IMG/VR virus record: IMGVR_UViG_3300021127_000004
Location: 14,700 to 78,699 of that record
Direction: 5' to 3' (one strand)
Source of the DNA: a virus
Length of the DNA stretch: 64,000 bases
This document shows positions 1 through 50,918 of this stretch, in pieces. Position 1 is the stretch's first letter. Every line of letters starts with the position of its first letter. Position numbers and translations under genes: made by a program. A model generated the notes under the pieces. It was given only the letters and a program-made list of their open reading frames with translations. It did no database searches and was not told the DNA's origin.

Positions 1-81
1 GTTGGCATTGTCGATAAGATTAGCCCATAATATTGCTACTATGAGCGTTAATGAAAATAGTATCGTGTAAACTGCTAACAT
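1..81 (-). CDS. partial small membrane protein (runs off the window start)
   Basis: ATG at 81 overlaps the endolysin stop; reads MLAVYTILFSLTLIVAILWANLIDNAN..., one hydrophobic helix; not in the ORF track. Confidence 0.4.
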   Translation of the reverse strand, partial: MLAVYTILFSLTLIVAILWANLIDNAN

Positions 82-539
82 GGTGTATTGTATAGTGTCC
101 ATTCAGCCCTACGGCGTGTTTCTAGCCCTTTAACGGGCAAGTGGTTAGAGTATATCCATTTGTCAAATTCTAGCTGTATAGACGGGTCTTTTGGGTTTGC
201 GTTTACTTTCTTTAGTAATGTACTTTCGGATAAGTTACCTTCACCCAAATTGTAAGCAAAAGACACCAACGCACCGAACTGATTATCGTTTAATTGTGAT
301 GTGACTAAATGACTAACGGCTACTGCTTTTTGATTGACTTCAAAGGTTAAGTATTCGATTGCTTGTTGTTCTGTAATTGCTGGTTCTCCTACTTTTACTT
401 TGTTGCCATTGGGGTAAGTTGTTGAACCGTATCCGATTGTGTCTATCGAGGGGGCATCTATACTGTCATGATAGGCAGTTGCTGAAAACCCTTCGAAGTG
501 TTTTATTAAATCTATTGTTTGTTTGTTTACTTGTCTCAT
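75..539 (-). CDS. endolysin, GH24 phage lysozyme
   Basis: LIKHFEG catalytic Glu, TIGYG, QFGALVSFAYNLG and GLETRRRAE motifs; lies in the lysis cluster. Confidence 0.95.
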   Translation of the reverse strand: MRQVNKQTIDLIKHFEGFSATAYHDSIDAPSIDTIGYGSTTYPNGNKVKVGEPAITEQQAIEYLTFEVNQKAVAVSHLVTSQLNDNQFGALVSFAYNLGEGNLSESTLLKKVNANPKDPSIQLEFDKWIYSNHLPVKGLETRRRAEWTLYNTPC

Positions 540-543
540 AACC

Positions 544-843
544 TTACTTTTTTAAATCTTCATACCTTAACCCATTGTGATAAGAACGGTAATTTATATC
601 GTCAAAAAATCCATTCATATCATGTTCTACTCCATCCTCTTGCCATCTTAATATTAATCCCACTTCGCACTCATTATCTATATCGTAGCGTATATCGTCA
701 AGATTGAAGAAATACTGGCAACAAAAAGAAGCAATCCCCCCAATATCATCTCCTACCCATCCATCGAAATCTAAAACTTGCTTTCTAATGAATTTATTTA
801 AGTATGCTATTGCTACTGATTCGTAGCGTTGTTTAAGTGTCAT
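544..843 (-). CDS. hypothetical protein
   Basis: 99 aa ORF packed between spanin and endolysin. Confidence 0.6.
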   Translation of the reverse strand: MTLKQRYESVAIAYLNKFIRKQVLDFDGWVGDDIGGIASFCCQYFFNLDDIRYDIDNECEVGLILRWQEDGVEHDMNGFFDDINYRSYHNGLRYEDLKK

Positions 844-1364
844 AACCTAGGTTTTACTATATACAATACCAACGCAATCACTATCGCTGCTAATAATAGC
901 CAGAAATATAAGCACCATTCATTGCCTCTACTATGTTCTTTTGAAACTTGTAGTTGTTGAGTAGTGATTATTCCGTTTAATGTTGCTATCTGCTTGTTTA
1001 AATTCTCTATTTGCGATTTGCAAAGGGATAGTTGTTGGTTGTCGATAATGGTGTCACGGTCGTGTATGTGCGTTGTATTTGTGTGGGTTATTGTAGTGGT
1101 ATCGTGTATGTAATTGCCTACTGTATCATGACAAGTAGCAATAGAGGTATCGTGCAAATAGGTTGTATCGCTCGAATGCGATATCACCTTATTATCGCAA
1201 GGGTGTAAGTTAGTGTAAACTTGCCCCACCGTATCAAATAGCGGTTCTTTAGTTAGCACTTTCTGTAACGCTGTACGGTCGGACATACAACCCGTTAAAT
1301 GCCACATTATCAGTCCAAATAAAATGATAATTCCAATGTAACTATAACCTTTATCTGCTTTCAT
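840..1364 (-). CDS. unimolecular spanin (lipoprotein with C-terminal transmembrane helix)
   Basis: hydrophobic signal plus lipobox LTGC, HDT-rich segment, coiled coil, C-terminal TM (LYFWLLLAAIVIALVLYIV); lies in the lysis cluster. Confidence 0.75.
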   Translation of the reverse strand: MKADKGYSYIGIIILFGLIMWHLTGCMSDRTALQKVLTKEPLFDTVGQVYTNLHPCDNKVISHSSDTTYLHDTSIATCHDTVGNYIHDTTTITHTNTTHIHDRDTIIDNQQLSLCKSQIENLNKQIATLNGIITTQQLQVSKEHSRGNEWCLYFWLLLAAIVIALVLYIVKPRL

Positions 1365-1384
1365 TTTTTCTCTTTTTAAAAGTA

Positions 1385-1481
1385 CCCTCTATCGTTCTTG
1401 TGTTAGATAGAGGGCGTTAAATGTGTCTCGGACACTAGCCCCGTATGATTTAAGGGCGAACTTGGGGCAATGTAGCCGCAA
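1385..1481 (-). other. intergenic cluster of stem-loops (terminator/attenuator-like)
   Basis: CCCTCTATC-N12-GATAGAGGG, GTGTC-TCG-GACAC, GCCC-N12-GGGC and TTGGGGC-N6-GCCGCAA within ~100 nt of GC-rich intergenic DNA. Confidence 0.5.
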
Positions 1482-1486
1482 TCAGT

Positions 1487-1669
1487 TTACTGTGGCGTAG
1501 TGCCTCCTGTTACGTTACCGTCTTTAGCTGCAATCAAACCTGCTGCTACTAAAATAGTAGTTATAGCTGTTGCTACATCTGTTGTCACATATTGGGGATA
1601 TAAAGTATGTGCCAACGTAGGCAATACTGCTAAAATCCCTGCTAATGTTGTCTTCCACGATTTAATCAT
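1487..1669 (-). CDS. holin-like protein (2 TM)
   Basis: 60 aa, KSWKTTLAG N-terminus, two hydrophobic segments and a GLIAAKD ending typical of small phage holins. Confidence 0.7.
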   Translation of the reverse strand: MIKSWKTTLAGILAVLPTLAHTLYPQYVTTDVATAITTILVAAGLIAAKDGNVTGGTTPQ

Positions 1670-1752
1670 TTCTTCTGTTTTAAATTATTATCAAATATTT
1701 TATAACCTATATACATAGACAAAACTACATAAATAAGTTTAATTATCCACAT
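1666..1752 (-). CDS. 28-aa single-TM micropeptide
   Basis: MWIIKLIYVVLSMYIGYKIFDNNLKQKK; start overlaps the upstream stop (TAATG) and stop overlaps the downstream start (ATGA). Confidence 0.55.
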   Translation of the reverse strand: MWIIKLIYVVLSMYIGYKIFDNNLKQKK

Positions 1753-1943
1753 TATTTTTTACTAGCGTCTTTACGGATAGCTTGGTAGTAGTAAATTATG
1801 GCAAAAACGGATACAACACACCCTAATACAAATGAGATAATTTTCATAGTCCAATCGGCTACATTTGCCGATACTGCAAAAAAACCTAATCCCCCTATTA
1901 GTGTTGCAAATCCGTCTGCTGTCTGTTTAATGTGGTGTAACAT
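1752..1943 (-). CDS. holin-like membrane protein
   Basis: 63 aa with two hydrophobic segments and a basic C-terminus, at the head of the lysis cluster. Confidence 0.6.
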   Translation of the reverse strand: MLHHIKQTADGFATLIGGLGFFAVSANVADWTMKIISFVLGCVVSVFAIIYYYQAIRKDASKK

Positions 1944-1960
1944 AGTCTCTTAATGTGATT

Positions 1961-2317
1961 TTATTTGAATGTTAATTTTAAAAACGCCGCAACGAATTGT
2001 AAAAGCATCAACGCCGAACCATCCCAAGCCGTGTATTGTGCTGATGTCAAAGTATACTGATTTGATTTAACCCTCCTGCCATCATTAGCTATTAAAACAT
2101 AGCTAACAGTTACTAAGGTGTCATTTTCACTTGAATAAGACTGATTTGAGCCAGTTATCCCAATAGCTGACAAGGTGTCTTTCTGTTCGGGGAAACCTTG
2201 CCTAAAATAGACTTCGTTTATTCTTGCGGCTGTGCAGCCTGTAATAGTCGTGTCTATTGTTTGAGCCATAACACTTAACGACCCTAATACTAATAATCCT
2301 AATAATAACTTCTTCAT
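1961..2317 (-). CDS. small exported protein of the fibre module (signal peptide)
   Basis: MKKLLLGLLVLGSLSVMA|Q signal peptide; DTT, DTL and DTL sequons. Confidence 0.7.
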   Translation of the reverse strand: MKKLLLGLLVLGSLSVMAQTIDTTITGCTAARINEVYFRQGFPEQKDTLSAIGITGSNQSYSSENDTLVTVSYVLIANDGRRVKSNQYTLTSAQYTAWDGSALMLLQFVAAFLKLTFK

Positions 2318-2328
2318 AATTGATTGAT

Positions 2329-3090
2329 TTATAATCCGTATCTACTTTTTAATGCGTTAAAATTTTGAGCGACTTCTGTTGATGTTAATGCCCTATTATA
2401 TAATTGGCAAACTGATATAAAACCATTATATCCTTGCGTAAGATCTCCCTTATCAGATGCTATTCTTGCATCAAGTCCGCTATTGGTTAGCGTGCTATTT
2501 GTTATAGTACCTGTTGCTTTTGAAACCCCATTAATATATACAGTAATAGCATTGGCGTTATTAGTTACACATATATTAGTCCAATTACTATTTAATATTG
2601 AAACACTTGTTTTTATTTGCGTTAAATTACCGGCATCATTACGTTGCACGAACCCTACTGTAAAACCATCAAAATTACTACCATTGTCTATTTTAAATAT
2701 ATCATTGCCGCTAGATGCCCTTTCACAATACATTGCACCACCCGAAGAAGCGGAATTTACATTTACCCATAAACAAACTGTTGAACTAGATAATGCGCTA
2801 ATAATCTGTTTACCAAAAGAGGCATATTGATTTCCATTAAAAGTAAAGTAACCATTTTTTGAAGTATTAAATGTAGGGCTTGAAACTAAAGTAGTATTAT
2901 TGCTCATTCCACTTATGTCATACCATAAACTCCCAATACCATTATAAGAATTTGAATTTTGAGCGGTAATGTTTGCTATCAATCCATTTGTTACAATTGG
3001 TGGGTATTGCCCGATTGCTCCTAAAAAGAATCGCATAGGCTGTGCGTTTGCAACGCCAATGAATAATAATAAAATAACTAAATATCTCAT
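2329..3090 (-). CDS. LamG/concanavalin A-like lectin domain protein with signal peptide
   Basis: TVCLWV, WTNICVT, VYINGV and LYNRALTSTEVAQNFNA LamG-3 motifs; MRYLVILLLFIGVANA|Q. Confidence 0.85.
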   Translation of the reverse strand: MRYLVILLLFIGVANAQPMRFFLGAIGQYPPIVTNGLIANITAQNSNSYNGIGSLWYDISGMSNNTTLVSSPTFNTSKNGYFTFNGNQYASFGKQIISALSSSTVCLWVNVNSASSGGAMYCERASSGNDIFKIDNGSNFDGFTVGFVQRNDAGNLTQIKTSVSILNSNWTNICVTNNANAITVYINGVSKATGTITNSTLTNSGLDARIASDKGDLTQGYNGFISVCQLYNRALTSTEVAQNFNALKSRYGL

Positions 3091-5547
3091 TTATTTACAA
3101 TTTAATAACCAAACAGACGTAAATTTCGTGCCATCATAAAATATACATATTTCATCCCTCGAACTTGCTGTTGTAGTAAGTGAGGGTATTACTCCTGCTG
3201 GCGAAATAAAGTTAGTATAAGTGGTGATTGTACGACTTCCTGTGGCATCTTGATAAACATCTAAATGATAAGTTCGCCCTGCTACCGCATTGGATATTGT
3301 TAGCGTTCTGCCTGTGCCTGCAAGTGTTACCTGTGCATTGCATCCGTTACGAGCATCCCAAGTAATAGTTGCCCCGTCTGTAAGGGTAATGATGGGGCTG
3401 AAAGTTTGTGTTACTGTTGCTACTGATGCGCTATCTACTTTTAAAGGGCTGCCACTCGTTCCAATTCCTGTCAATCCAAAGCCTGTTGTAATATTAGCCA
3501 CTATTTTAGTCGTATCCAAATTATATGCACCTGTGCTTGAATTGTAGGTAAAGATTGAACCCGTAGAAACGTTGCGAGTTGCAGATAGGCTACTTCCTGC
3601 TAAATAGTCGTTTGATGCACCAGCCGTTGCCGCGCTAACATTACCACTACCGTCCGCCTTTAATATCCCCGTTACACTACCTGCACCGCCTTTAGTACTG
3701 CCTATTACTGACCCGTTCCATGTAGCGTTGGTTATACTTGCCGCCCCTAGATTAAAAGTGTTTGTACTCCAACTTACCGCCGAAGGTGCGCTAAAATGAT
3801 AATCCCATGTACCCGCTGAACTGCCATTGCTTACCAATACAACATAGGCATAACCGCCCGAAGGGATGGATAAAACAGTTGTTCCAGAGTTATTGTTTAC
3901 GGTTACTGCTCCACTAGACTGATTGTTATTGAAACTAAAAGTACACCCATTGGGCAAAGTAGTTGCATCAGGTAACTGCACAACCTGCCCACCTGACCCT
4001 GTTATGTAATAGTTGGGGGTAGATAAAACGGTTAAAGTTATCTGTGTGCCGCTTGCCGCTACGTTACTAAAACCGCTATAAAACGTATTCGCCGCTACAT
4101 TACCACACGCTGTATCTACTGTTACACCGTTGGTATATCCCACATGGTTTGTGCCATTCCAATAAGTTAGGGGTACTTTCGAAGATGTGATAGTTGGGGA
4201 GTTGCCTGTGATGCTACCTGTGCCTTTGTTAGCGTTGAAGTAAGTAGGGGTAATGTATAAACTACTATCCTTAGCCATTAGTACCTGCCTAAAATATTGC
4301 CCCGAACCTATTTGAGCAAATAAACTACCATTATGAGTGCCTATCAAATTATAAGCAACGTTTCTGTTGGTGTCGGGCAATGATAAGTAATTAATAGGAT
4401 ATATCGCACCTCCTGTTATGGCTGCGCTACTCGATGCGGTTACGTCACCTGCAAAATCAAAAGAAACGCCACTATTACTTAATGTGCCTGTTTTGCCGAA
4501 AGTCCAATAGTTAGTATTGTTATTCATTATTTTCAAGTCGTTATTATCCGTAGTACCCAATGTTGCAGTTGTGCCGAATGAGTTGCCGCCTTGTGAGAAA
4601 TAATTAGAAGCGTTTAAACTATCTTTAGGAACGTTACCGATTGCAACCAATAATGAACCGTTTGTATTATTAGCGGTTACTATACCTATTCTCATTGCAG
4701 GGTATAATGTAGAGGGGGTTGGTGATATTCCCCCGTTATCGCCTAGATAAACGTTTTGTCCTGCATTGTATATGCTTAAATTAAGCCCCGTTACTATCCC
4801 CCCGTTATAAACTATTCTTCCATATCCATTATTAGGGATGGAATCTAAAGATATTGCAAAAGGGGGGTATCTAGGATTACTACCTTTTGCTATTGCTATA
4901 CTAGATGTTGAATCAAGGCAAACGGGTGTTAGTGGGGAAATCCCCGTCCCCGTATTTTTGGGACTAGCCCCTACTGTACTTAACCTACTTGAATTGCCAA
5001 GACTATCTATGTAGTAGGGTTCTGTAAAGCCATTATTAGTCTTTGAATAAACCGATATTCCGACACTAGGATTAGAAGGGTCTGTACTTAGTGGGGTATA
5101 ATTATTTTTGGTTGTTTTACCTATGTAATAATATGTCGTACCGCTAGGTGTATCTATTGAAAGATTTGCAGTATAGCTTAATGAATGAACACCATTATAA
5201 AAAGGTATATCTTGAATTACCCCATTGCTGAATGTATTTCCACTTGCTAATGCACTATTGAATTGGGAAACTTTTTTAAAGTTGCTATTAGCTATCCCCC
5301 CGTTTAGAATCCAATAAGAACTATCTACCTTAGTATAAACCATAAAGGTTATAGTATCTCTATAATAAGTGGGGATTGCGTTTCTTGCAATCGTATCATA
5401 AACTACTTTTGTAGCCCCTTGAAGATATGTGCCGTAATATCCTGCATAAGCCCCTGCGGGTTGAATCCCCCCACTAGAATTGATAAACACTTGCCCAAAA
5501 GAATTAAGGCTTATAAAAAGAGATAATATAATTAATAGTTTCTTCAT
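3091..5547 (-). CDS. tail/head fibre-like protein with signal peptide
   Basis: G/S/T/N-rich; C-terminal TLTDGATITWD...QDATGSRTIT...FYDGT domain typical of phage fibres; MKKLLIILSLFISLNSFG|Q. Confidence 0.75.
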   Translation of the reverse strand: MKKLLIILSLFISLNSFGQVFINSSGGIQPAGAYAGYYGTYLQGATKVVYDTIARNAIPTYYRDTITFMVYTKVDSSYWILNGGIANSNFKKVSQFNSALASGNTFSNGVIQDIPFYNGVHSLSYTANLSIDTPSGTTYYYIGKTTKNNYTPLSTDPSNPSVGISVYSKTNNGFTEPYYIDSLGNSSRLSTVGASPKNTGTGISPLTPVCLDSTSSIAIAKGSNPRYPPFAISLDSIPNNGYGRIVYNGGIVTGLNLSIYNAGQNVYLGDNGGISPTPSTLYPAMRIGIVTANNTNGSLLVAIGNVPKDSLNASNYFSQGGNSFGTTATLGTTDNNDLKIMNNNTNYWTFGKTGTLSNSGVSFDFAGDVTASSSAAITGGAIYPINYLSLPDTNRNVAYNLIGTHNGSLFAQIGSGQYFRQVLMAKDSSLYITPTYFNANKGTGSITGNSPTITSSKVPLTYWNGTNHVGYTNGVTVDTACGNVAANTFYSGFSNVAASGTQITLTVLSTPNYYITGSGGQVVQLPDATTLPNGCTFSFNNNQSSGAVTVNNNSGTTVLSIPSGGYAYVVLVSNGSSAGTWDYHFSAPSAVSWSTNTFNLGAASITNATWNGSVIGSTKGGAGSVTGILKADGSGNVSAATAGASNDYLAGSSLSATRNVSTGSIFTYNSSTGAYNLDTTKIVANITTGFGLTGIGTSGSPLKVDSASVATVTQTFSPIITLTDGATITWDARNGCNAQVTLAGTGRTLTISNAVAGRTYHLDVYQDATGSRTITTYTNFISPAGVIPSLTTTASSRDEICIFYDGTKFTSVWLLNCK

Positions 5548-6516
5548 TTATTGAAAAGTTACTGCTGTTGCTGAAAGATTACCAATTTGATTATTACTTA
5601 CTGTATAGTATCCATTATATGTTCCCCCACTTGCATTTGTAAAGGTAATTGAATTATTTAGACTAAATGCAGATGTAGATGGGAATCCATTTACGGTAAC
5701 ACTTGTAACTGTACTCGTATTGACATAGAAAAGATACTTTGCGCTGCCTTGTTGTGGGATTGTGTACGAAAGTGAAGTTGCCCCCCCGCTATTATCTTGA
5801 TATAAGGCTGCCAATATTTCTGCTTGGGTGGGGGTTGTTGTTGCCGAAAATCCCAAATACCTTTTGTTATAAAAGGAAAATATAGTCGTTGCCGTAGCCG
5901 TTTTTGAATCAGTAGTAGTGACTACATTGCTATATGTAGTATTAGTGTTTCTTGTTACTGAAACTCCTTGTGTGCCTGTTACTGTACTACCTGCACTTGG
6001 TTGTGTAAATGTTTGCCCTGTACCTGCTACTACTATTGTAGCAATGGGATTTGTTGCTCCCTGTGTTGATGTAGCCGATAATCTCCCCGCCCCCCAATTT
6101 AAAGTGTAAGACAATGCAGCCCCACTAGCAACGATTTCCTGTGAAAATCCCCCTGTCAAAGTAGCAGTAGGGTTTTGTGTTTGTATCTTAACATACCCCA
6201 ACAAGGTATCATTAAGTGCTGTATGGGTTACAAATAGGCTACTATCTACGGTTGATGAGTTTCGTTTCCATCCGAAACCATTCCAAAACCATTTTGCTGT
6301 ATCCACCCCTGCATTTGCAAAAATTATTTCTGTACCATAATAACGGGCTTTCATATTTGTATCCGTCCTTACTGCGGGGATATAGCCACTATCTGATTTT
6401 AAAAAAGCGTATTTTATCCAACTTGTAGAATTGGTTACGGGATTACCTTGTGGGAGTGATTGCGAAAATCCCCCTACCAAAAACAAACTTAATAATATAG
6501 TTAATAGTATCTTCAT
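5548..6516 (-). CDS. virion appendage/Ig-like beta protein with signal peptide
   Basis: T/S-rich beta protein in the fibre module; MKILLTILLSLFLVGGFS|Q. Confidence 0.65.
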   Translation of the reverse strand: MKILLTILLSLFLVGGFSQSLPQGNPVTNSTSWIKYAFLKSDSGYIPAVRTDTNMKARYYGTEIIFANAGVDTAKWFWNGFGWKRNSSTVDSSLFVTHTALNDTLLGYVKIQTQNPTATLTGGFSQEIVASGAALSYTLNWGAGRLSATSTQGATNPIATIVVAGTGQTFTQPSAGSTVTGTQGVSVTRNTNTTYSNVVTTTDSKTATATTIFSFYNKRYLGFSATTTPTQAEILAALYQDNSGGATSLSYTIPQQGSAKYLFYVNTSTVTSVTVNGFPSTSAFSLNNSITFTNASGGTYNGYYTVSNNQIGNLSATAVTFQ

Positions 6517-6554
6517 TTATTTAATTGTTATTTATTAAGGGTAAACGCGGATTT

Positions 6555-8666
6555 CTATTGATAAACACGTAAGTAAATATTTGAAAATGTCAATAACCCA
6601 TCCGTTAAAACACCGCTTGAATTATATGTATAAAAAGTGAAAATATTTTTATATATTATACCTGATTGCGTTGTAGAAAAAGTACCATTAGTTATTTTAT
6701 TGTCGGAGAATGATATATCTGTATTATTCCCACAATATTGGAAGTGAATATTTGTTTTTGTAGATATAGTGCAAGTGTAAGTTCCTGTAGATATATAGTC
6801 AAAATGAACTGAATTAACACTAAATGTATCTATATCATCTACAAATACCTTTTGAATTGTAGGGGCTGTTGTTCCGCTTTGATATAACCTAGCTCTAAAT
6901 TCATAATATCCTTTTGAGGGGATATTCGCTTGTACATAATTCTTTACTGCATTAACACTAGGATATAGTATATTGCTTGCGCTATCTGATGGATTTATTG
7001 ATACCGCTAAGTTATTTACGTCTTGGGGGATTAATCCTTGATTTTGCACTGAATATAACCATTCGCCGCTACCTACATATTGTAATCTAACTTGTATGCC
7101 CGAATCTACTGTAATATTATTTGTATAGCTTCCACTAGATGCTGTTGCGTAAAAATAAGTCCCTGTATTAGACCTTAAATTAAAATTGTTATTCAAACTA
7201 TAAGAACCTGTTATATTGTATATGTAATCTGTTTCACCTATTTTTGGGTTAGGATTAGTAAATAGTGAATACCCACTATTTGTAGGGTTTACAAAAGTAT
7301 ATTTAGAAGTTGTAGTTATTGTTCCACTTAGGGTTATTACTGTGTCAGTATAAGAAACACTATTTGCTTTTACAAATCTAGTGATAGCTTGTACACTAGG
7401 GTACTTCGTAGTAGAAGCACTATCAGATGTTGCATTGTTAGATAAATTACTTAACGCTTGTGCATATCTGCCTACTGATTGAACTGTTGGGTATTTTGTT
7501 GTGCTGCTACTATCGCTTGCTACATTTGTTGATTTATTAGCAATATTTTCGGGTACATACCCTAAGCCAACATTAAGAATATCCCAATTAGTAGATGTTT
7601 GCCCGGGGCTATTAGTCAATGCCCTTACACTAGACCCTACTACAACCGATGTCCCGCCTAAAGTACCTGCTACTTTTATATACCATAAATCTCCCTTTTG
7701 TATAGCCCCTGCTGTGCCACTACCCCCCGTTGAAGGGAAAACGTTGCCACTAGCATCGTAACTACCTCTGTCATTAAGAAGTCCTACTACTAGACCTGCG
7801 GCATAGGTTCTTGTGGCTTGTTGTGTAGGGTATAAAGTAGAACTATTTGCAGCCATAGTCCCATCGTTAGAAAGGTTTGATGTAACTTGATAGCCACTAA
7901 GGTTTGGGGCGTGGTTGGTTACATAAGACTTTACTGCGTTTTGTGTAGGTAGAGAATACAATGGGGAACTAGAAAGGGATGTATCATTTGAAAATGCGTT
8001 TACACCATACCCCCCTAGATTAATAAAAGAACTAGCTTGTAAGGACAATGCTTCTATACTAGAAAAGTTATTATCTCCCGTAAACACATTGTTTTTAGCT
8101 AAATAAGGGATTCTTGTAGTGTCAATAGAACCACCTCCTCCACCTTGATGATTAGTTACATACGATTTTACTGCTTTTTGTGTGGGCAATATTGCATTTG
8201 AATTACTTGTCATTGCGGTATCGGTAGATATTGATGATATTAATTGACCGCTAGTAAACCCCAAAAAACCATTTATTGTCAATGTATTATAATGCCCGTC
8301 TATTGATAGGGTAGTTCCTGCATCATTATTATTAATATCTCCTATTGTAGTAATATCTCCATTTATTGATAACCCACTTGCATCGTTGTTGTTACTTACG
8401 TTTATATTAGGGAAAGTATTATTGCCTGTAAAATTATTATTCTTAGCTAAATAAGGTATTTTAGTACTATCAATAAGTTTTGAATTATTTATCTTGTTGT
8501 AGATAATGTTTTCAAACATCCTACCTACTCTTACGGCGGTGTTAGCCCCTGCCCTTGTTTCATTTTTTATTGTATCTGCTTGTGTAATTAATTGGGCATC
8601 TGTTAATTGGGATTTCCCCTCAAAGTAAACAAGCCCCAACAAAACTAATAAAATAACTTTCTTCAT
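6555..8666 (-). CDS. fibre protein with signal peptide and internal repeats
   Basis: N-terminal IKNET-AGANTAVRVG segment; repeated PTQKAVKSYV/YPSVQA fibre units; duplicated IPYLAKNNxFTG; MKKVILLVLLGLVYFEGKS|Q. Confidence 0.75.
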   Translation of the reverse strand: MKKVILLVLLGLVYFEGKSQLTDAQLITQADTIKNETRAGANTAVRVGRMFENIIYNKINNSKLIDSTKIPYLAKNNNFTGNNTFPNINVSNNNDASGLSINGDITTIGDINNNDAGTTLSIDGHYNTLTINGFLGFTSGQLISSISTDTAMTSNSNAILPTQKAVKSYVTNHQGGGGGSIDTTRIPYLAKNNVFTGDNNFSSIEALSLQASSFINLGGYGVNAFSNDTSLSSSPLYSLPTQNAVKSYVTNHAPNLSGYQVTSNLSNDGTMAANSSTLYPTQQATRTYAAGLVVGLLNDRGSYDASGNVFPSTGGSGTAGAIQKGDLWYIKVAGTLGGTSVVVGSSVRALTNSPGQTSTNWDILNVGLGYVPENIANKSTNVASDSSSTTKYPTVQSVGRYAQALSNLSNNATSDSASTTKYPSVQAITRFVKANSVSYTDTVITLSGTITTTSKYTFVNPTNSGYSLFTNPNPKIGETDYIYNITGSYSLNNNFNLRSNTGTYFYATASSGSYTNNITVDSGIQVRLQYVGSGEWLYSVQNQGLIPQDVNNLAVSINPSDSASNILYPSVNAVKNYVQANIPSKGYYEFRARLYQSGTTAPTIQKVFVDDIDTFSVNSVHFDYISTGTYTCTISTKTNIHFQYCGNNTDISFSDNKITNGTFSTTQSGIIYKNIFTFYTYNSSGVLTDGLLTFSNIYLRVYQ

Positions 8667-8682
8667 ATATCTATTTTAATTT

Positions 8683-9480
8683 TTAACTAAACGTATTGTC
8701 AAATGTATTATCAAATGTATCTACCGAACTCCCCCCACTACTAACCGCATAATCTATTATTACTTTCATCCCATATTGTAATCCTAAGTTCTCTGTTGGG
8801 TTATCTATGGAATAGTTAAAGAATGTAATTGTGACAAAGGTAGGGGTATAAATTATATCTACGCTAAGTTGCCCTACAATATTTGGAAATATTCTTGTGC
8901 CGTCTATATATACCTTTACTGATTTAGTTGCTATATTAGCAGAATTTATAGTATATGTAGTGGCGTTTGCAGGAATTATAATGGGGGAATCCACTCCTAC
9001 TATTGCATCTATCTCATTGAATACGGTATTTCCGCTGCCGCTAGTTGATGTAAAGTTATTGGATTGATACCATAGTGAGTTTATCCCTTTGCTTATCCTT
9101 AAAGCCTGATTTGCAGGTATATAATTAAGTTGTTCACCAAAAGAAGTATAGTAGACTTTACCGCTTGCAAGGTTCACATCATCCCCTGTTAGGTTTATTA
9201 TAATCCATTCGTTATATACATTGTCCCCAAAAGTGATAGAAGTAGGGGTTATGCCACTTATTACCGTTACCCCGTTTGATAATGTTATATCCCCCCCTGT
9301 TGTTATAGTTTTAGCCCCGTTCCAATTAAGGGGGGATTGTTGGATAAATTTAGCCAACCCATTTATCTGTGCATTACCAAAAATACCCGTTATATCCCCA
9401 ACCCCATTTGGTATCCAAATAGTATTCGTGTCTTGTAATAGAGCCGCTAAGGTTTGATATGTAACATTTGGGTAAATCAT
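8683..9480 (-). CDS. virion hub/fibre adaptor protein
   Basis: N-terminal IPNGVGDITG segment and C-terminal DTFDNTFDNTFS repeat; lies in the structural module. Confidence 0.55.
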   Translation of the reverse strand: MIYPNVTYQTLAALLQDTNTIWIPNGVGDITGIFGNAQINGLAKFIQQSPLNWNGAKTITTGGDITLSNGVTVISGITPTSITFGDNVYNEWIIINLTGDDVNLASGKVYYTSFGEQLNYIPANQALRISKGINSLWYQSNNFTSTSGSGNTVFNEIDAIVGVDSPIIIPANATTYTINSANIATKSVKVYIDGTRIFPNIVGQLSVDIIYTPTFVTITFFNYSIDNPTENLGLQYGMKVIIDYAVSSGGSSVDTFDNTFDNTFS

Positions 9481-10278
9481 TTATCCTTTATTTCTATGCA
9501 ATGAGTATTGTTCTATAAATTGGTCTCTAGTAACTATTCCAAACTTCTCTAATAATCTTCCAACAAATTCGTTTTTAAGGTTTACCCCCCACTCTAATTG
9601 TTGGCTATTTTTTGAATCATAAACTATTTGCCCCCCTGCACCCGTATTCAAATTAGGGGTTGTTGTTGTGTATGCAAATGTAGCTTGTTTTGGCAATCTA
9701 AAATAATATAGGACAACAACGCTTACATCTCTAGGGGCTACGTTGAAAACCCCGTTTACCTGTACCATTTTAGGTTTACTCATTGAAGGTCTTTTATCTT
9801 CAAATTCGTGGTTTAAACAAGCATCCCAACGTTGTAAGTCTACCTCTGTAATATCTACTTCTCTTATGCTATTTAAGTAGTCATTAATGCTTTGTGCAGG
9901 CGGAGTTACTTCTTGATTATCTTCATCTTTGTAACACAATCCTTTGTTTACTTTATCGTTGGGGATTGTTATTACACTATCATCTGTCTTTACTGTTATC
10001 ATCCCTGCTTTGAATAACCTTCCGTAGTCTTTAGGTATATTGGCAGTAGTGTAGTATGATGTAGCGGGGTTTGTTATGATATTTTGAGAAACTAAAAACG
10101 GGCGCATATTATCCCTCCATTCTTGGCTTTTTTCTGATTCACGGCATCCCATTTCCCATAACTCATAGTTGATAAGATTAAGATGCCTTATGAATACCGT
10201 AGCAGGGGGGATAAACCCCCCTTGAAACGTATTTGCTTCCGAACATAAATCTTGATATAAGTCGTATGAATCTATCAT
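9481..10278 (-). CDS. tail ring / head-tail adaptor protein
   Basis: ANTFQGGFIPP..F N-terminus and YFRLPK...YD..SQQLEW C-terminus resemble ring proteins of crAss-related podoviruses. Confidence 0.65.
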   Translation of the reverse strand: MIDSYDLYQDLCSEANTFQGGFIPPATVFIRHLNLINYELWEMGCRESEKSQEWRDNMRPFLVSQNIITNPATSYYTTANIPKDYGRLFKAGMITVKTDDSVITIPNDKVNKGLCYKDEDNQEVTPPAQSINDYLNSIREVDITEVDLQRWDACLNHEFEDKRPSMSKPKMVQVNGVFNVAPRDVSVVVLYYFRLPKQATFAYTTTTPNLNTGAGGQIVYDSKNSQQLEWGVNLKNEFVGRLLEKFGIVTRDQFIEQYSLHRNKG

Positions 10279-10281
10279 CTA

Positions 10282-12876
10282 TTAAGGGCAATTTATTGAT
10301 TGTAATGCACCTACTACTGCATTTGTTACTGCCCATATAGTACCATCCCCTAATGCAACTGCTGTAATAGTGTTTGAAATAGGTATTGATGTGCCACTAT
10401 CTGTATATAGTGTAACCCCACTAGCAAAAGAAGAAGTCGTATAAATGGTGGTATAAGGTTGGCTACAAACCGCCGTTGTAAGTACTGTACCTAATTGTAC
10501 TACTGTCGCTATTGATGGTGGCGTAACTAATATTGTTTGTTCTACTCCGCTTGCAGGACTTGAACAATTTTGCAATACTTGAATGTCGTAAGTAACCCCC
10601 ACCGTAACAGGAATGCTTACAGGTGTAACCAAATACCCATTGCTACCTACTGTTATTGCGGTAGAATATGTTGTATAAGGATATGCAGGGGAATGTCCAC
10701 TAACACGATAAAGGACTGTTACTGTTTGTGCTGATGTAGGTATTGTGTCAAAAGCCAACTTGGTAATATTCAAATTTGTCCCCGAAATATTATATAAGAA
10801 AGAAAGTATAAGTGGGCAACTTGTTGTATTTGCACAAATAGTCGATGCTATGCAAAAATTATTCAAGAATTGTGTATCTGTGATACCTATTGCCATTATA
10901 GCCCTTGCTAATTGTATAGGGGTTGCAAACCCACAAGCATTGGCAAAAACCCCCAATATAATATCTGTTGAAGCAACGGAAGATGCAGGTGTACCAAAAA
11001 CCCCCTTGACTACATTACAATTTGTCCCTTTGTTCCCTAATGAATAAGCAACCAAAGACCCTAAAGCAGTATTTACCGCTTGTATGTAAATATCTAATTC
11101 ACCCCCTTGTGCTACTACTATATCTTGCTCTAATCCTGTTGAATTATTTAAAGCAGGAACGGTATAAGATTGGGATGTGAATACTTCGCTAGTGTCTAGT
11201 GTACAGATTTTATTGATTATATTCTGTATTACTGTTTGTGCAGGGATAGGAACATAACCCCCACTTGTCTTAGTAAATGTAGCCGCATAATTAGAACTAG
11301 CAACTGAATAGTTAAGCCCTATGATTACATTAGGATTAGTGTTAGATACTATATGAATAGTGCCATCTGCGGGGGAATCCCCACTTACTGAAAAAGTACC
11401 TATCCCTAAAGTGTTAAGATATGTTTGTAGTGCAGGTAAGTTATTAGTATTGAAAGTAAAGTTAGTAAGGATACTTTCGCTTTGTAGTTGGAAAGAAGTC
11501 AATATTGCATACACCCCTACCCCTGTTGGGATATTGGACAATGTGAAAGTATAGTTATTTGCTACACTACTATTGAATACGCATTTACCATCTACTATTA
11601 TATCGAAGTTGCTGCTTTGGTTTAATTGGTTTATCAAATTGGGGTTAGCCAAAATAGCATTAACCAAATCTTGTGCAAGTACTGCTTCGTTTACTTTTAG
11701 GGTGTATGTCTTTTGGTCTCCCGAAACAGAAGTACTCCAAGAATAAGCATCTTCATTTGAAGGGTCAACTGCCACTAAGTAAGTTATATCCCCTATTGTA
11801 AGGGTTACGTTATTACCTGTTGCAGAATAAGAGCCTGTTATATCCCCACTAGGATTAAGTATGTAGTTTATCCCGTTTGATATTGCATTTTTACCCGTAA
11901 CTATACCTGACCCAATACCATAACAATTACAAGAAAATTTACCAATACGTTTTATCTTTTCAATAGTTGCAGGGACATCCACGCCCGTAAGTGGCTGCCA
12001 TAAGCCAATTACTACTTGTATAAAAAGGCTATTAATTTGCATTAATTGGTCTCTTGCGGCAGATATATCCACACAAGTACCATATCTGATAGTATCCTCT
12101 AATTTAGTTATTTCACATACTAAAGGGGAAAGGTCAATATTACATAATGCAGCAAATGTCTTTCTTTGGAAGTAAAGTATGGTTACATAAGTATCATTAC
12201 CGTATGCGTAATTGTAAATAGAGTTTTGTACAAATTCATAAGCATCTGAACTTACTGTAAGTGGGGCAGAACATACGGCATAATTATTAGCCACAAAAGG
12301 GATTGGGCTTGTCCCTGTCCCATCCAAAGGATATTTAAGGCTTAGTGTAGATGATATTTGTGTGCCTATCAAACCATTGTAACCATAATTTGTTTGGTCT
12401 TGGAATAAAACGCTTTGTTGGCTACATTGTACCGTTGCTATTGTAGATGCCAAACCTGTCATATCCTGCGAAGCAGTAGTGTTCCCGTTTGGTCTTATTA
12501 TTGTAGCATTTTGTACTGGGGCGGTATATATATTCCCTACACTATCCTGACAAGTTACTTGGAATGTAAAAGGTACAGGAGAAAATTCTATATTACCTGC
12601 GGGCATAGGGAATCTATCGTTCAATACCGTATTAGACCAAACCCCCACAATATCAGGATTACTAATATCCCCGTTATGTATGATTGTTTGTGAAGGTGAT
12701 ATTACCAAAAATGCGTATGATACATTTTGTAGGTTTGTCCCCGTACTAAGATTTTGTAGTTTTACTTTAGGGGTTGGCTGTACGTTGCCATTTGAATCAA
12801 CATTTTGTGTCAAATCAAAAGTTACGGCTACCCTTAAAAGACCTATATCGGGAGAATTTGTTATTACTAATGACAT
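10282..12876 (-). CDS. large Cys-rich virion structural protein
   Basis: 864 aa, S/T/N/V-rich with many Cys; sits between capsid and tail genes. Confidence 0.6.
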   Translation of the reverse strand: MSLVITNSPDIGLLRVAVTFDLTQNVDSNGNVQPTPKVKLQNLSTGTNLQNVSYAFLVISPSQTIIHNGDISNPDIVGVWSNTVLNDRFPMPAGNIEFSPVPFTFQVTCQDSVGNIYTAPVQNATIIRPNGNTTASQDMTGLASTIATVQCSQQSVLFQDQTNYGYNGLIGTQISSTLSLKYPLDGTGTSPIPFVANNYAVCSAPLTVSSDAYEFVQNSIYNYAYGNDTYVTILYFQRKTFAALCNIDLSPLVCEITKLEDTIRYGTCVDISAARDQLMQINSLFIQVVIGLWQPLTGVDVPATIEKIKRIGKFSCNCYGIGSGIVTGKNAISNGINYILNPSGDITGSYSATGNNVTLTIGDITYLVAVDPSNEDAYSWSTSVSGDQKTYTLKVNEAVLAQDLVNAILANPNLINQLNQSSNFDIIVDGKCVFNSSVANNYTFTLSNIPTGVGVYAILTSFQLQSESILTNFTFNTNNLPALQTYLNTLGIGTFSVSGDSPADGTIHIVSNTNPNVIIGLNYSVASSNYAATFTKTSGGYVPIPAQTVIQNIINKICTLDTSEVFTSQSYTVPALNNSTGLEQDIVVAQGGELDIYIQAVNTALGSLVAYSLGNKGTNCNVVKGVFGTPASSVASTDIILGVFANACGFATPIQLARAIMAIGITDTQFLNNFCIASTICANTTSCPLILSFLYNISGTNLNITKLAFDTIPTSAQTVTVLYRVSGHSPAYPYTTYSTAITVGSNGYLVTPVSIPVTVGVTYDIQVLQNCSSPASGVEQTILVTPPSIATVVQLGTVLTTAVCSQPYTTIYTTSSFASGVTLYTDSGTSIPISNTITAVALGDGTIWAVTNAVVGALQSINCP

Positions 12877-12889
12877 ATTCTAAATTTTT

Positions 12890-12925
12890 AAAAACAAAAA
12901 GGGCGAACCGAAAATCAGCCGCCCT
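12890..12925 (-). terminator. rho-independent terminator after the capsid gene block
   Basis: minus strand AGGGCGGCTGA-TTT-TCGGTTCGCCCT followed by TTTTGTTTTT. Confidence 0.8.
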
Positions 12926-12959
12926 ATTACCCACCACCCACAGCGCAATGGGCAACTAT

Positions 12960-13739
12960 TTACACGGCTGTTATTACTGTACCAAAGTTATCTCCCAAAG
13001 TAAATCCTGTTGCGAATAATGTTGAGTTAGTCGAATCAAGATACCAAGTAATTTCACCCCCGTTTGTATAATTTGCGTTTAAGTATGTCAACAATGCTGC
13101 GGGTGTAGAATATGTAGTTGGTGCTGTTGGAAGAAACACGTTATTGATAATCCCTTGTGGGAAATATTTTAAAGAACCACTTAATGTTGGCAACGCTACG
13201 GTTGTGTAATTAACCCCTGCCGCAAAGTAAGTAATAGTCCCATCATTTGTTTGATTGATACTTACTTGTGGTATAATTACTTTAGGAAATAATGTAGGGT
13301 CAACTGCAAATATTTGTCTAGGTGAATTAAATGGGTCTGTTATTTGTACAATACCTTGCATCAATATAACCGTACCCCCACTTTGGACACTAGCTGCTGC
13401 CATCAAATCTGTCAATTCCCCAAATATGTACCAATACTTAGATGTTCTAGGTTCTTTAATCAAGAAACAAGGAAGGCTATCTACGGTAGGTGGGGTTAAG
13501 TAATATTGCCCCGTCCTTAATGTATTGTAATCAAACCCCGTAAAAACACCATTATCTGAAATAGGTACAGCCCATCTATCGTAGTTATCAAACTTTAAAT
13601 CAGATGCCTTTGTTGGAACATACAATGCCTTTGGAGAACAGGATAGACCGTTTACCATATCAAGGAAGTCTATCCCGTTTTCGTTTAAGACACACGCCGC
13701 AACGGTATTACCAAAAATATAAGGAGCAGGTGTTGACAT
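12960..13739 (-). CDS. auxiliary capsid/decoration protein (paralog 2)
   Basis: shares ALPTLSGSL..FP and Y.TPA.LLT..NA with 13759..14490; lies downstream of the MCP. Confidence 0.55.
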   Translation of the reverse strand: MSTPAPYIFGNTVAACVLNENGIDFLDMVNGLSCSPKALYVPTKASDLKFDNYDRWAVPISDNGVFTGFDYNTLRTGQYYLTPPTVDSLPCFLIKEPRTSKYWYIFGELTDLMAAASVQSGGTVILMQGIVQITDPFNSPRQIFAVDPTLFPKVIIPQVSINQTNDGTITYFAAGVNYTTVALPTLSGSLKYFPQGIINNVFLPTAPTTYSTPAALLTYLNANYTNGGEITWYLDSTNSTLFATGFTLGDNFGTVITAV

Positions 13740-13758
13740 TAATTACTTTTATTTACTA

Positions 13759-14490
13759 TTAAAGTGCAGGGTTCACCGCAATCACACCACCACCAAATAC
13801 TATTGGAGTGGTAGCACTAAAGTTTGTAATCGTACCAATCAAGGTAAGGTTATCAGAACTCAAAGCCCAAGTGAAAGTAGTAGAACCGATTGTAGTCCAA
13901 TGTGCATTTGCAAATGTCAATAGGTTTGCAGGGGTTGTATAAGTTGTACCTGCTATTGATGCAGTAGGATATGCTTCTGTACCATTCACGTTTGCAAAAG
14001 GGAATAGTTGCAAGCTACCTGACAAGGTAGGCAATGCTAGGTTTACAGTTGTGTTACCGTTTACATCTGCACCATATACTGTTTGTACCCCATAAAGCGT
14101 TGCAGCCCCGTGAATGTAATAAACAGAATTGTAAGGGTTGGCTGAACCATTCAAGTATGCAGTTGTAGTTGGCAATGCAGTACCACCATTGGAAGCAGTT
14201 ACATATTGTGCAGAAGTACCTACTACTATCCAACTGTCTGAACTATTAGTCATAGACAATTTGAATACAGGGATACCCCACAATGGCAATGGCTGATTAG
14301 GGCTGTCTGCAAGGTTATAAGGGATATAGTCGTAATCGGAAACAAACCCCTCATTAACAGGAACTGCATAATAATCGCCGTCTAAGTGACCGCCCTCTAA
14401 AGGGGTAGCAATTTCTTGTAAAGAACCTATTAGTTGGGATTTCACGAAATCAATCTGATTCCCCTTTCTTAATACTAACGCTTGTATCAT
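13759..14490 (-). CDS. auxiliary capsid/decoration protein (paralog 1)
   Basis: paralog of 12960..13739; co-transcribed with the MCP before the terminator. Confidence 0.55.
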   Translation of the reverse strand: MIQALVLRKGNQIDFVKSQLIGSLQEIATPLEGGHLDGDYYAVPVNEGFVSDYDYIPYNLADSPNQPLPLWGIPVFKLSMTNSSDSWIVVGTSAQYVTASNGGTALPTTTAYLNGSANPYNSVYYIHGAATLYGVQTVYGADVNGNTTVNLALPTLSGSLQLFPFANVNGTEAYPTASIAGTTYTTPANLLTFANAHWTTIGSTTFTWALSSDNLTLIGTITNFSATTPIVFGGGVIAVNPAL

Positions 14491-14502
14491 AATTTATATT
14501 GT

Positions 14503-15450
14503 TTAATTTTCTGAAACTTGTTTTTCTTTTAAGTCAACCTTTGCTATCAACTCTTGATATTTAGCTGCATATTCAGGGGTTTTAAGCAATTCTGCGATTT
14601 GTTTAATCTTAGTCTTTTCGCTTAAATTTTTACCTTCGTAATTAGCCAATACCTTATTGTCGTCAACAAATGAAGCTGTATTTGCCCCTATGTTTATAAC
14701 TTGCAACTCTTTTGCGTGGACAATCAATGTTGTTACATTATCATCCAAAGTGGTAATAGTATTAAGGAACGTTTCAGGGTCTGCGCTTGCCATACCTGCC
14801 AATACTGTTAATTTTTGGGAGTATGTATCGCCACCGTAAGCATTGAACAATGATAATAATGTATCAATCTTAGTTGTTTGGTAAACGTTTTTGCCCCCTT
14901 CTTTCTTGACTAAGTTAGCAACATACCCAATAGCCTTGTTACTTACTATCCACCTGTCGTTAAATTGTTCCTCGTCTTTCAAAGGCTCAATTACTTTAAA
15001 GAACTTCTTTGATGTATCCCCATCAGGTCTGTTTGTTGCATTCTCGTTAAAGGCGCAATCCCTCATAAAAGAAAACATCCCCCTGTCACCTTCGTCTTTA
15101 AGAACTAGGATACCGTTTGGTATCTTTATTTTCTCCCCACTAGGGATATACTCCCCGTTTTCATTGGTTCTAGTTTGGATGCCCTTGGCTTGTAATTTGG
15201 TAATCTCGTTTTCATAGATTCCTTTTACATACCTAATTGGGATTTGATTCCCTTCCTCATCCCACTTGTAACTAATTGTAGGTAGGTAAATCACGCTAGG
15301 AAAAGACTTTACATCTTCTGTCTTTTGTGACATTACATTCGGGGCGATTTCCCTTCTAAATCCGCTATCCCCCTTAATCGTACTTTCAAAGATTAATACC
15401 TGTACTTCTTTCTTTTTGCTAGAAGGTTTAGCTGTGGCTACTTCTGTCAT
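14503..15450 (-). CDS. capsid-module protein of unknown function
   Basis: 315 aa immediately downstream of the MCP. Confidence 0.6.
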   Translation of the reverse strand: MTEVATAKPSSKKKEVQVLIFESTIKGDSGFRREIAPNVMSQKTEDVKSFPSVIYLPTISYKWDEEGNQIPIRYVKGIYENEITKLQAKGIQTRTNENGEYIPSGEKIKIPNGILVLKDEGDRGMFSFMRDCAFNENATNRPDGDTSKKFFKVIEPLKDEEQFNDRWIVSNKAIGYVANLVKKEGGKNVYQTTKIDTLLSLFNAYGGDTYSQKLTVLAGMASADPETFLNTITTLDDNVTTLIVHAKELQVINIGANTASFVDDNKVLANYEGKNLSEKTKIKQIAELLKTPEYAAKYQELIAKVDLKEKQVSEN

Positions 15451-15471
15451 TTATCTACGTTTTATTGTTTA

Positions 15472-17037: not shown

Positions 17038-17064
17038 ATTGTTTTATTTTATTGTTTGTTTGTT

Positions 17065-18183
17065 TTAATTATTTTCCGCACTATAATAAGCGTTTCTTTT
17101 TTCTATCCCCGTCTTTACTTCTGTACCATTGCTCAAAGCAACCCTGTCTTTCAATATCCCTTTCAACCCCCCTTTGTGCCTGATAACCCCCTTATTTACC
17201 GCATCTGACAATATGCTTGGCAAGTTTTCTACTATGATGGCATTTTTTACTATCGTAGATATTTGCTCTTTTGTAGCACCGTTTAGTATTTGCTTTCTAG
17301 CTTCTGATTCAGATAAGAAGTGTTCAATATATCCTTCTATCGCTTCACTAGCATCTACTTTTAAAGTCCAATCAACGCCTGCTATTGGCAATTCCAAACT
17401 TTTCAATTCGGTCTTTACTTCTTCTATGATAGCCTTATATGTTGGGGCTTTTGAAAGAACTTCTTTGTTTACCTTTTCTTCTTCTGATTTTTGTTTTTCA
17501 AAAGAAGTGTATTTATCTTCTAGGCTTACTATTTCGGGGAATGTACTTTCGATAATGTTTTTTGCAAGTGCATTAAGAAGTTTTTGCCCTCTCTTATACT
17601 TTGCGCTTTCTTTATCTTCGTTCAATCCAAACTTTTCGTCATATTCCGCCTTGAAATCATCTTCGTCAAATCCTTCTTCTTGTCTTGCTTCTTCAAGTTG
17701 TTGTTCATAAACTGCTTGGTGTGGGTTTGCATTTACTTTTGTAAACAATTCAAAACTTTCTGCATCAATCAGCTTGTTTTGTAACCCCCAAGCAAGGGAT
17801 TCTGATTTACGTCTTGATTTTTCTGCCTTTTCATCAACTACGGGTTTAAATAAATCAGAAACATCATCACGACCCGTTTTCTTTTTAAGGTATTCTACGA
17901 CTGCTTCGTCTGTCAATTCGATTTTAGCAGGGGCATCGTCTTTTTTTTCTTCAACTATTGGGGTAACTTCTTCTTTTTGTTTTGCGCCAATCTTTAAAGG
18001 GGTTTCGTCAATAACTTCTTCTGACTTATCATCTACGTTATCAACTTTATTTGCAGGGGTTTCCAAAGAACTATAATATTCGTCTCTTTTCTTCCTAGCC
18101 TCTAGGACTGCGGCATCATCACCGCCTCCTCCTGTTATTTCTGTATCCGTGTTGAAAATGAATTTGCTGTGGGTGCGAATCAT
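17065..18183 (-). CDS. capsid scaffolding protein
   Basis: very E/D/K-rich and helical; directly upstream of the MCP. Confidence 0.65.
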   Translation of the reverse strand: MIRTHSKFIFNTDTEITGGGGDDAAVLEARKKRDEYYSSLETPANKVDNVDDKSEEVIDETPLKIGAKQKEEVTPIVEEKKDDAPAKIELTDEAVVEYLKKKTGRDDVSDLFKPVVDEKAEKSRRKSESLAWGLQNKLIDAESFELFTKVNANPHQAVYEQQLEEARQEEGFDEDDFKAEYDEKFGLNEDKESAKYKRGQKLLNALAKNIIESTFPEIVSLEDKYTSFEKQKSEEEKVNKEVLSKAPTYKAIIEEVKTELKSLELPIAGVDWTLKVDASEAIEGYIEHFLSESEARKQILNGATKEQISTIVKNAIIVENLPSILSDAVNKGVIRHKGGLKGILKDRVALSNGTEVKTGIEKRNAYYSAENN

Positions 18184-18217
18184 AAATAATTAATTACGAT
18201 GTAAAATTGCACCCGAT

Positions 18218-18248
18218 TTTGTTCTTAAATAACATTCCATTACCTTTG
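18218..18248 (+). promoter_or_regulatory. Bacteroidota housekeeping-sigma promoter
   Basis: TTTG (18218-21), N19, TACCTTTG (18241-48), upstream of the ORF at 18269. Confidence 0.8.
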
Positions 18249-18268
18249 TAATCTTTCAAAGTGATTAT

Positions 18269-47363: not shown

Positions 47364-47372
47364 TTTTTTAAT

Positions 47373-50913: not shown

Positions 50914-50918
50914 GTTTT

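Follow-up and report, generated by a model that had tools for sequence, protein, structure and literature searches.

Fibre-like phage proteins with predicted Sec leaders, encoded next to the lysis genes, suggest a two-compartment route of virion assembly

The tail fibres of the canonical tailed phages (gp34-37 of T4, Stf of lambda, gp17 of T7) lack a signal peptide, and both their synthesis and their mounting take place in the cytoplasm; T4 fibres can attach to fibreless particles in vitro as well. Host Sec is used by Sec-exported and signal-arrest-release (SAR) endolysins and by the coat proteins pIII and pVIII of the filamentous phages; pIII, the leader of which is cleaved, serves in the virion as a receptor-binding protein. 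Glycosylated virions are known from mycobacteriophages, where phage glycosyltransferases act in the cytoplasm. Here we analyse a block of five adjacent genes in IMG/VR record IMGVR_UViG_3300021127_000004 (positions 14,700–78,699; this stretch of 64,000 nt, the right-hand 64 kb of the record, is hereafter ‘the window’) whose products resemble phage fibres and carry predicted leaders for Sec and signal peptidase I (SPI). The best explanation for this block, to which we assign a probability of about 0.58, is that the tailed phage in question uses a two-compartment route in which Sec-exported fibres would dock on virions at lysis. The original prediction, made from the window’s sequence, had named no earlier description of this mechanism, and we likewise found no paper on it, nor any on Sec-exported tail fibres of tailed phages in general.

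The block occupies window positions 1961–8666 on the minus strand, which is the strand of the late genes, and its genes are separated by gaps of 0–38 nt. It encodes (i) fibre 1 (6555–8666 (−), 703 aa; leader MKKVILLVLLGLVYFEGKS↓Q at nt 8610–8666), (ii) fibre-like protein 2 (5548–6516 (−), 322 aa; leader MKILLTILLSLFLVGGFS↓Q at nt 6463–6516), (iii) the mosaic fibre 3 (3091–5547 (−), 818 aa; leader MKKLLIILSLFISLNSFG↓Q at nt 5494–5547), (iv) a LamG/ConA-like lectin protein (2329–3090 (−), 253 aa; leader MRYLVILLLFIGVANA↓Q at nt 3043–3090), and (v) a small conserved partner (1961–2317 (−), 118 aa; leader MKKLLLGLLVLGSLSVMA↓Q at nt 2264–2317). All five open reading frames (ORFs) and their N-termini are exactly as quoted in the original prediction. 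The leaders comprise 16–19 residues, with Lys or Arg within positions 2–3, a hydrophobic core of 10–13 residues and, in 5/5 cases, Gln at position +1; the small residues at −3/−1 are, in gene order from fibre 1, G/S, G/S, S/G, A/A and V/A. In the rule-based heuristic scan of all 105 ORFs on which our leader calls are based, the five block genes are the only ones with non-lipoprotein leaders of this type, and the probability that five of 105 genes all adjoin by chance is ∼1e-6. Besides the block, that scan flagged three genes, namely the spanin, a holin-like membrane protein and, outside the window, a lipoprotein-like ORF. No leader was called on the capsid, portal or other structural genes, which agrees with the earlier claim that the upstream capsid and tail genes are leaderless. 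Two alternative readings of the N-termini were considered and rejected: neither the lipoprotein (signal peptidase II) nor the type IX secretion system (T9SS) route fits, since no leader has a lipobox Cys and no T9SS C-terminal sorting domain (TIGR04183/PF18962 type) was found in any of the five (Pfam E≤0.1, NCBIfam E≤1), and a downstream start skipping the leader is incompatible with the lack of an in-frame Met near the leader in all five and with the retention of the leader in homologues.

Leader-like N-termini are present in 33 of the 181 homologues of fibres 1 and 3 found in databases, and 31 of these 33 expose Gln. The leaders themselves differ greatly in sequence, so that what appears to be conserved are the properties of a leader rather than its residues. 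SPI substrates that expose Gln once cleaved are characteristic of Bacteroidota (the Q-rule; PMC5837995), and Gln at +1, together with glutaminyl cyclase, stabilises extracytoplasmic proteins (PMC10653852). The evidence supports the view that the leaders of the block are conserved, phylum-specific Sec/SPI signals. The expectation that SPI leaders would be limited to the block stood insofar as no other ORF has a leader of this type at its called start, and failed for a nuclease-like protein encoded outside the window, whose leader is internal. This 267-aa ORF (genome 11213–12016 (−), ∼2.7 kb before the window start) contains the internal leader …LWSWG↓QHTIQ and a GHIxP-type motif resembling that of a non-specific nuclease, and a 234-aa homologue from locus L007 (L-numbers denote loci of relatives) begins directly at its leader, MKQTLLFFSWLVIVVNSWG↓Q. 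It is probably a sixth exported protein, the start codon of which was mis-set by ATG-only ORF calling.

The mature parts bear out the description of the products as fibre-like. Fibre 1 is composed of a mature N-terminal module (QLTDAQL…ANTAVRVG), six repeats of PTQxAVKxY type (consensus (Y/L)P(S/T)xx(A/S)xxx(Y/F)), and a widespread central domain (aa 255–410) for which a representative search yielded 2752 relatives. Fibre 3, with 31 mosaic homologues, contains a module (aa 400–650) that is common to leaderless tail fibres of phages with higher G+C content (GC) and a C-terminal tip domain (aa ∼704–809) that matches two unrelated phages, Methylophilales phage MEP301 and Arthrobacter phage Jinkies. 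The 253-aa protein belongs to the LamG family PF13385 (E 4.1e-20, 72.9 bits versus a cut-off of 27.6, profile positions 2–151 of 151) and, in PHROG, also matches large ‘virion structural proteins’ at their C-terminal ends; a leader-bearing homologue of 260 aa is found at the equivalent position in L002 and L004. For fibre-like protein 2, the ESM Atlas provided no more than leads, which point to phage protein clusters, some of them with Mtd_N or Phage_tail_C. The small partner ends in …LTFK and sits just after the fibre genes, i.e., in the usual slot of tail-fibre assembly proteins. Its homologues, identified by their position and by the …LTFK end, have 119–126 residues, all with leaders that expose Gln, and lie between a leader-bearing fibre and the holin (L005–L012 and L008); a pattern scan with the 118-aa protein yielded no close relative. 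In this family Q19 and D47-T48 are invariant, and the next residue completes the sequon of Bacteroidota O-glycosylation (see below) in all five aligned sequences.

The five proteins themselves match no fibre family in Pfam or PHROG, and a Foldseek search of the PDB gave no match at E≤0.001; in the ‘VIA wide’ comparison the best Z was 5.1 and tailspikes appeared at Z 3.8–3.9, all within noise. Cysteine counts provide no clear signal for periplasmic disulfides. Block proteins do share modules with leaderless fibres located in tail modules, and their homologues include matches to Peptidase_S74 and BppL_N above, and to K1-lyase_C and F5/8-type-C below, the respective cut-offs. The five genes are best explained as a host-recognition set in which three modular fibres are accompanied by a LamG lectin and the small conserved partner.

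Comparison with a sister phage from IMG/VR points in the same direction. The two genomes are 98% identical at the DNA level across the structural genes; from about codon 173 of fibre 1 onwards this similarity is lost, and it is regained at the holin. Residues 1–173 of fibre 1 are 95% identical and the remainder is replaced; protein 2 retains the leader plus three residues, with its body exchanged to give a sister protein of 393 aa; residues 1–316 of fibre 3 are 75% identical while the distal part is replaced; the LamG gene is absent from the sister, and the small partner is only 28% identical. The flanking structural proteins, including those of 265, 265 and 864 aa, and the holin are 99–100% identical. 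Because the leaderless structural proteins are nearly invariant while the leader block differs, host-range variation appears confined to the block. The combination of kept proximal and swapped distal ends is the signature of virion-anchored receptor-binding proteins. The assignment of the five proteins as the modular fibre and receptor-binding set of the phage is thereby supported, and the reading of the block as predicted exported host-recognition proteins is well supported.

The leader looks like an addition to an otherwise ordinary fibre. Leaderless homologues of fibre 1 start with M-(A/S)-Q-(L/K)-TDAQL…ANTAxRVG, which aligns with the predicted mature end without a shift; the leader neatly extends the N-terminus by 18 residues, and a cut at KS↓Q would nearly recreate the leaderless N-terminus. 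Hence, to judge by the alignment, the leader is grafted onto a real fibre. Its distribution follows the type of phage: among IMG/VR homologues of fibre 3, a leader exposing Gln is present in 6/6 distinct low-GC phage types (11 loci) and in 0/16 distinct higher-GC types (34 loci), the N-termini of which resemble those of ordinary fibres. On other backbones, both myovirus-like (with sheath and baseplate hub) and podovirus-like, the same order of leader-bearing fibre, leader-bearing 119–126-aa partner or LamG-like protein, and holin recurs (L002–L012). In the podovirus-like L010 and L012, a leader-bearing protein of 924–972 aa is the only large protein between portal and holin. A further leader is found in L006/L007 (1735–2166), where a 143-aa protein with …SNA↓Q is encoded between the major capsid and tail sheath genes of a myovirus-like phage and may represent an exported head decoration protein.

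Evidence on virions themselves is available for a distant relative. Cellulophaga phage phi18:3 (KC821620) encodes, just upstream of its lysis genes, gp085, gp086 and gp087, which begin with …FGYS↓Q, …GVSA↓Q and …GLNA↓Q, respectively, and which KC821620 annotates as structural proteins on the basis of experimental tandem mass spectrometry (MS/MS) proteomics. Phage phi46:3 likewise has five consecutive Q-rule leader genes (gp079–083). Both phages (Pachyviridae) resemble ours in being distant relatives by their large terminase (TerL) and in having 3–5 consecutive large Q-rule genes directly upstream of the lysis genes; they differ in that their proteins have no detectable similarity to the five proteins of the block and in that the O-glycosylation motif discussed below is depleted rather than enriched in the regions encoding their leader-bearing proteins (2892–8584 in phi18:3, L148; 30343–38945 in phi46:3, L147). 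We found no paper that comments on these leaders. By analogy, the public record of phi18:3, which is the sole experimental anchor, suggests that leader-bearing proteins at this genomic position do occur in virions.

A second line of evidence concerns the Bacteroidota O-glycosylation motif D-(S/T)-(A/I/L/V/M/T), which is active solely in proteins outside the cytoplasm, where its sites are as a rule all used (PMC8550257, PMC12871550). The five mature proteins contain 21 motifs versus 8.0 expected (2.6-fold), compared with 15 versus 21.9 expected for 13 leaderless structural proteins. Sequons are concentrated in fibre 1 (7 versus 2.9 expected) and fibre 3 (9 versus 3.0 expected), and the LamG protein has none. 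For homologues, the ratio of observed to expected motifs is 2.4 where a leader is present (31 proteins) and 1.1 where it is absent (145 proteins), and in related loci it is 3.1 for leader-bearing proteins versus 1.45 for the others; control motifs are mostly unenriched, with one partly overlapping control at 1.7. A glycosyltransferase cassette, recognised from PHROG glycosyltransferase matches, is located at 48737–51569 (−) and could tailor a glycan on exported fibres.

Taken together, it is tempting to propose the following sequence of events. Late in infection, the five proteins would be threaded unfolded through SecYEG; SPI would cleave before Gln, and host glutaminyl cyclase would convert this residue to pyroglutamate. 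The chains would then fold and trimerise in the periplasm and, in this freshwater lineage, would probably also be O-glycosylated there at D-(S/T)-(A/I/L/V/M/T). Meanwhile, a fibreless, DNA-filled particle would be assembled in the cytoplasm. Holin, endolysin and spanin would merge the compartments so that particle and fibres meet for the first time, whereupon the conserved N-terminal modules would dock on the leaderless tail proteins. We infer export, cleavage, glycosylation and the timing of docking from features of the sequence. For many Bacteroidota tailed phages in general, we see about an even chance that a head/tail core made in the cytoplasm is joined at lysis by exported, pyroglutamate-capped and, in some lineages, O-glycosylated fibres, lectins and partner proteins.

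Several points weigh against this proposal. We know of no tailed phage that adds parts made outside the cytoplasm, and docking after lysis would be dilution-sensitive. Virion MS/MS can pick up co-purifying proteins, and the protein sets for which motif enrichment was scored share homologous modules, so that the respective statistics are not independent. The leader-bearing Cellulophaga proteins have ∼3 motifs versus ∼10 expected; because of this depletion, glycosylation cannot be the general reason for export and is, on these counts, a lineage-specific consequence or benefit of it. AlphaFold2 monomer models of the 118-aa family and the 703-aa protein have a low mean predicted local distance difference test score (pLDDT), i.e., 53 and 59, respectively, with the latter model being good only at residues 260–410. 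The pattern is also patchy: no such leaders are present in the cultured phages 11b, FCL-2, 6H and elemoA of Flavobacterium (elemoA being covered over its first 50 kb) or B40-8 of Bacteroides, and L142, a Bacteroidota-type phage (GC 0.33), has the N-terminal module of fibre 1 without a leader, which makes the leader non-obligatory for this module. In L142 (8001–13894), the leaderless module is followed by a leader-bearing 824-aa protein and by a 456-aa protein that contains, after its leader, …YYVSSNGSDGNNG… and looks like a β-helix depolymerase.

It is conceivable, though unlikely, that the proteins are exported and never become part of the virion, in which case they would be fibre-derived periplasmic or released proteins acting on the host envelope, and the true receptor-binding protein would be leaderless, e.g., the 864-aa protein. 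Possible roles would then be receptor masking or superinfection exclusion, blocking of receptors on debris so that progeny escape (akin to the decoys considered in the original prediction), or remodelling of surface glycans. Such a reading accommodates leaders that look real, a genome that appears to export at least one non-structural, nuclease-like protein, and an 864-aa protein that matches no Pfam or PHROG family; moreover, Q-rule proteins of Porphyromonas gingivalis phages have been read as modifiers of the host outer membrane (PMC10367356). However, a free protein or decoy has no need for N-terminal modules that change in step with the virion backbone while its distal parts are exchanged, host-range variation lies in the block alone with the 864-aa protein virtually unchanged in the sister phage, L010 and L012 offer no alternative fibre candidate, the leader proteins of phi18:3 were found in virions according to the record, and the five proteins possess neither the lipobox nor the T9SS domain with which they could reach the cell surface. 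Less probable still, in our view, is that the leader is not used for export at all and that the fibres are mounted in the cytoplasm, in which case the hydrophobic N-terminus would be hidden within the tail, cleaved off by a phage protease or used to tether the fibre to the inner membrane face. Cytoplasmic assembly is the established rule for all studied tailed phages, and L142 does mount the same N-terminal module leaderless; the Porphyromonas gingivalis phage study suggested, in addition, that prohead proteases remove leader-like ends of capsid proteins (PMC10367356). Yet cytoplasmic mounting provides no reason for the strict −3/−1 residues and Gln at +1 (31/33) across very different leaders, or for the restriction of the leader to phages of the one phylum that follows the Q-rule, and it leaves the enrichment, in this lineage, of a motif that is active only outside the cytoplasm unaccounted for; the MAT fibres of Bdellovibrio, moreover, show that fibre-like trimers with signal peptides function outside the cytoplasm (PMC10769870). 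Finally, the block might be a moron, that is, a cargo cassette of bacterial-type adhesins and lectins that aids the host or lysogen and has no relation to the virion. LamG lectins and leader-bearing adhesins are indeed common in bacteria, and a match to the NCBIfam fimbrial entry TafC was seen, albeit far below cut-off. We regard such a cassette as very improbable, considering that a pattern scan with fibre 3 revealed no relative in 185,579 bacterial species genomes, that all homologues are found in phage contigs, where they lie at the structural module’s end, that the genes are packed on the late strand with gaps of 0–38 nt, and that their modules are common to bona fide tail fibres.

The genome in which the block resides is a single phage contig of 78,699 bp with nearly all genes on the minus strand, and the window encodes, among others, a portal, a large terminase, GroEL/GroES, a 2835-aa protein and a nicotinamide phosphoribosyltransferase. 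The portal is followed by ORFs of 372, 521, 315, 243, 259, 864, 265 and 265 aa, and then by the five leader genes and the lysis cassette. Neither a tape-measure nor a sheath gene is found among the ORFs after the portal, and the phage is therefore probably short-tailed. A search of 50,697 phage records with TerL matched only phages of Flavobacteriia (87 records at 20–25% identity; Flavobacterium, Cellulophaga, Tenacibaculum and Maribacter), plus one uncultured record; the TerL relationship thus serves as an independent pointer, by sequence similarity, to Bacteroidota as host phylum. Against the same phage records, megablast with window positions 1–20000 and tblastn with fibre 1 or the portal yielded no match, and fibre 3 and P0012 gave matches to short modules only. 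The GroEL/GroES pair (45687–47672 (−)) is uninformative with regard to the host: the best bacterial matches of its GroEL come from unrelated phyla and do not exceed 39% identity, and identity to the GroEL of Flavobacterium phage elemoA is 30%; cpn10 genes are also present in the Cellulophaga relatives. Tandem repeats of 27 nt are found at the start of the contig (genome 1–285, outside the window), where an ORF running across them repeats MFGTMLRYR.

As had been stated for its position between the tail genes and the lysis cassette, the block is flanked by both. Just upstream lie the leaderless structural proteins of 265, 265 and 864 aa (8683–12876 (−)), which are candidate docking sites. They have no Pfam match, and the second 265-aa protein has only a weak match to a PHROG ‘virion structural protein’; the ESM Atlas returned nothing for the 864-aa protein. 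The adjoining structural proteins of 259 and 243 aa (12960–14490 (−)) are paralogues with 31% identity. A sigma-70-like site with an 11/12 match (TTGACA, 18 nt, TAAAAT) is located at 8673–8702 (−), just upstream of fibre 1; promoters of Bacteroidota differ from this consensus, and neither promoter-like sites (52 versus 53.2 expected from shuffling) nor terminator-like sites (9 versus 8.0) are in excess in the region. Directly after the five leader genes, the canonical lysis cassette of holin, spanin and endolysin (75–1943 (−)) comprises a holin-like protein (1752–1943 (−), 63 aa), a second membrane protein (1487–1669 (−), 60 aa), a unimolecular-spanin-like protein with an LTGC lipobox and a C-terminal membrane helix (840–1364 (−), 174 aa), a 99-aa ORF (544–843 (−)) and a leaderless GH24-type endolysin (75–539 (−), 154 aa; lysozyme family E 5.5e-30). 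The endolysin is matched by 690 phage records and, being a generic GH24 enzyme, is uninformative with respect to the host. Near-identical lysis cassettes are present in L004 and L007, in each case after the phage’s own leader-bearing fibres. Since the spanin is 99% identical in the otherwise different phage L004, it appears that the lysis cassette moves as one unit between phages of this host.

If the proposed route is correct, the textbook rule by which the cytoplasm is where tailed phages are completed no longer holds. Host Sec, SPI, glutaminyl cyclase and the O-glycosylation system would then be phage assembly factors and, possibly, determinants of resistance. Virions could wear host-made glycans on those parts that contact new hosts. 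For phages that infect Bacteroidota of the gut, the mouth or the environment, this would have consequences for host range, resistance to proteases and immune recognition. For annotation, leader-bearing ‘hypothetical’ proteins encoded next to the lysis genes of Bacteroidota phages would turn into candidate receptor-binding proteins rather than cargo. The cultured Cellulophaga phages with virion mass spectrometry data make the question directly testable.

The described systems each share some, and lack other, traits of the block. The MAT fibres of Bdellovibrio bacteriovorus (PMC10769870) are likewise fibre-like mosaic trimers with a signal peptide, in which a conserved N-terminal domain precedes distal parts that vary and, in some cases, include an S74 chaperone; however, likened here by description, they are encoded by the bacterium and located on its own surface or vesicle, and they are not parts of a virus particle. 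The Q-rule genes in prophages of Porphyromonas gingivalis (PMC10367356) agree with the block in that predicted SPI cleavage exposes Gln, an adaptation to the Sec pathway of Bacteroidota, and differ in being of unknown function and having been read as host-envelope modifiers, whereas the genes of the window constitute a fibre and host-range cassette. Exported endolysins are not virion parts, and filamentous phages are assembled at the membrane and extruded, whereas the window belongs to an icosahedral, DNA-packaging lytic phage with portal and terminase. As with the mycobacteriophage virions, glycans would reside on surface proteins, except that in the present phage the host is proposed to glycosylate the exported fibres in its periplasm. 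With the canonical tail fibres, the block shares its place at the end of the structural module, the conserved virion-proximal N-terminus, the exchangeable distal parts and a small downstream assembly partner. Hence, the known kind to which these proteins would belong is the tail fibre, and what appears to be new is its route, via a Sec leader.

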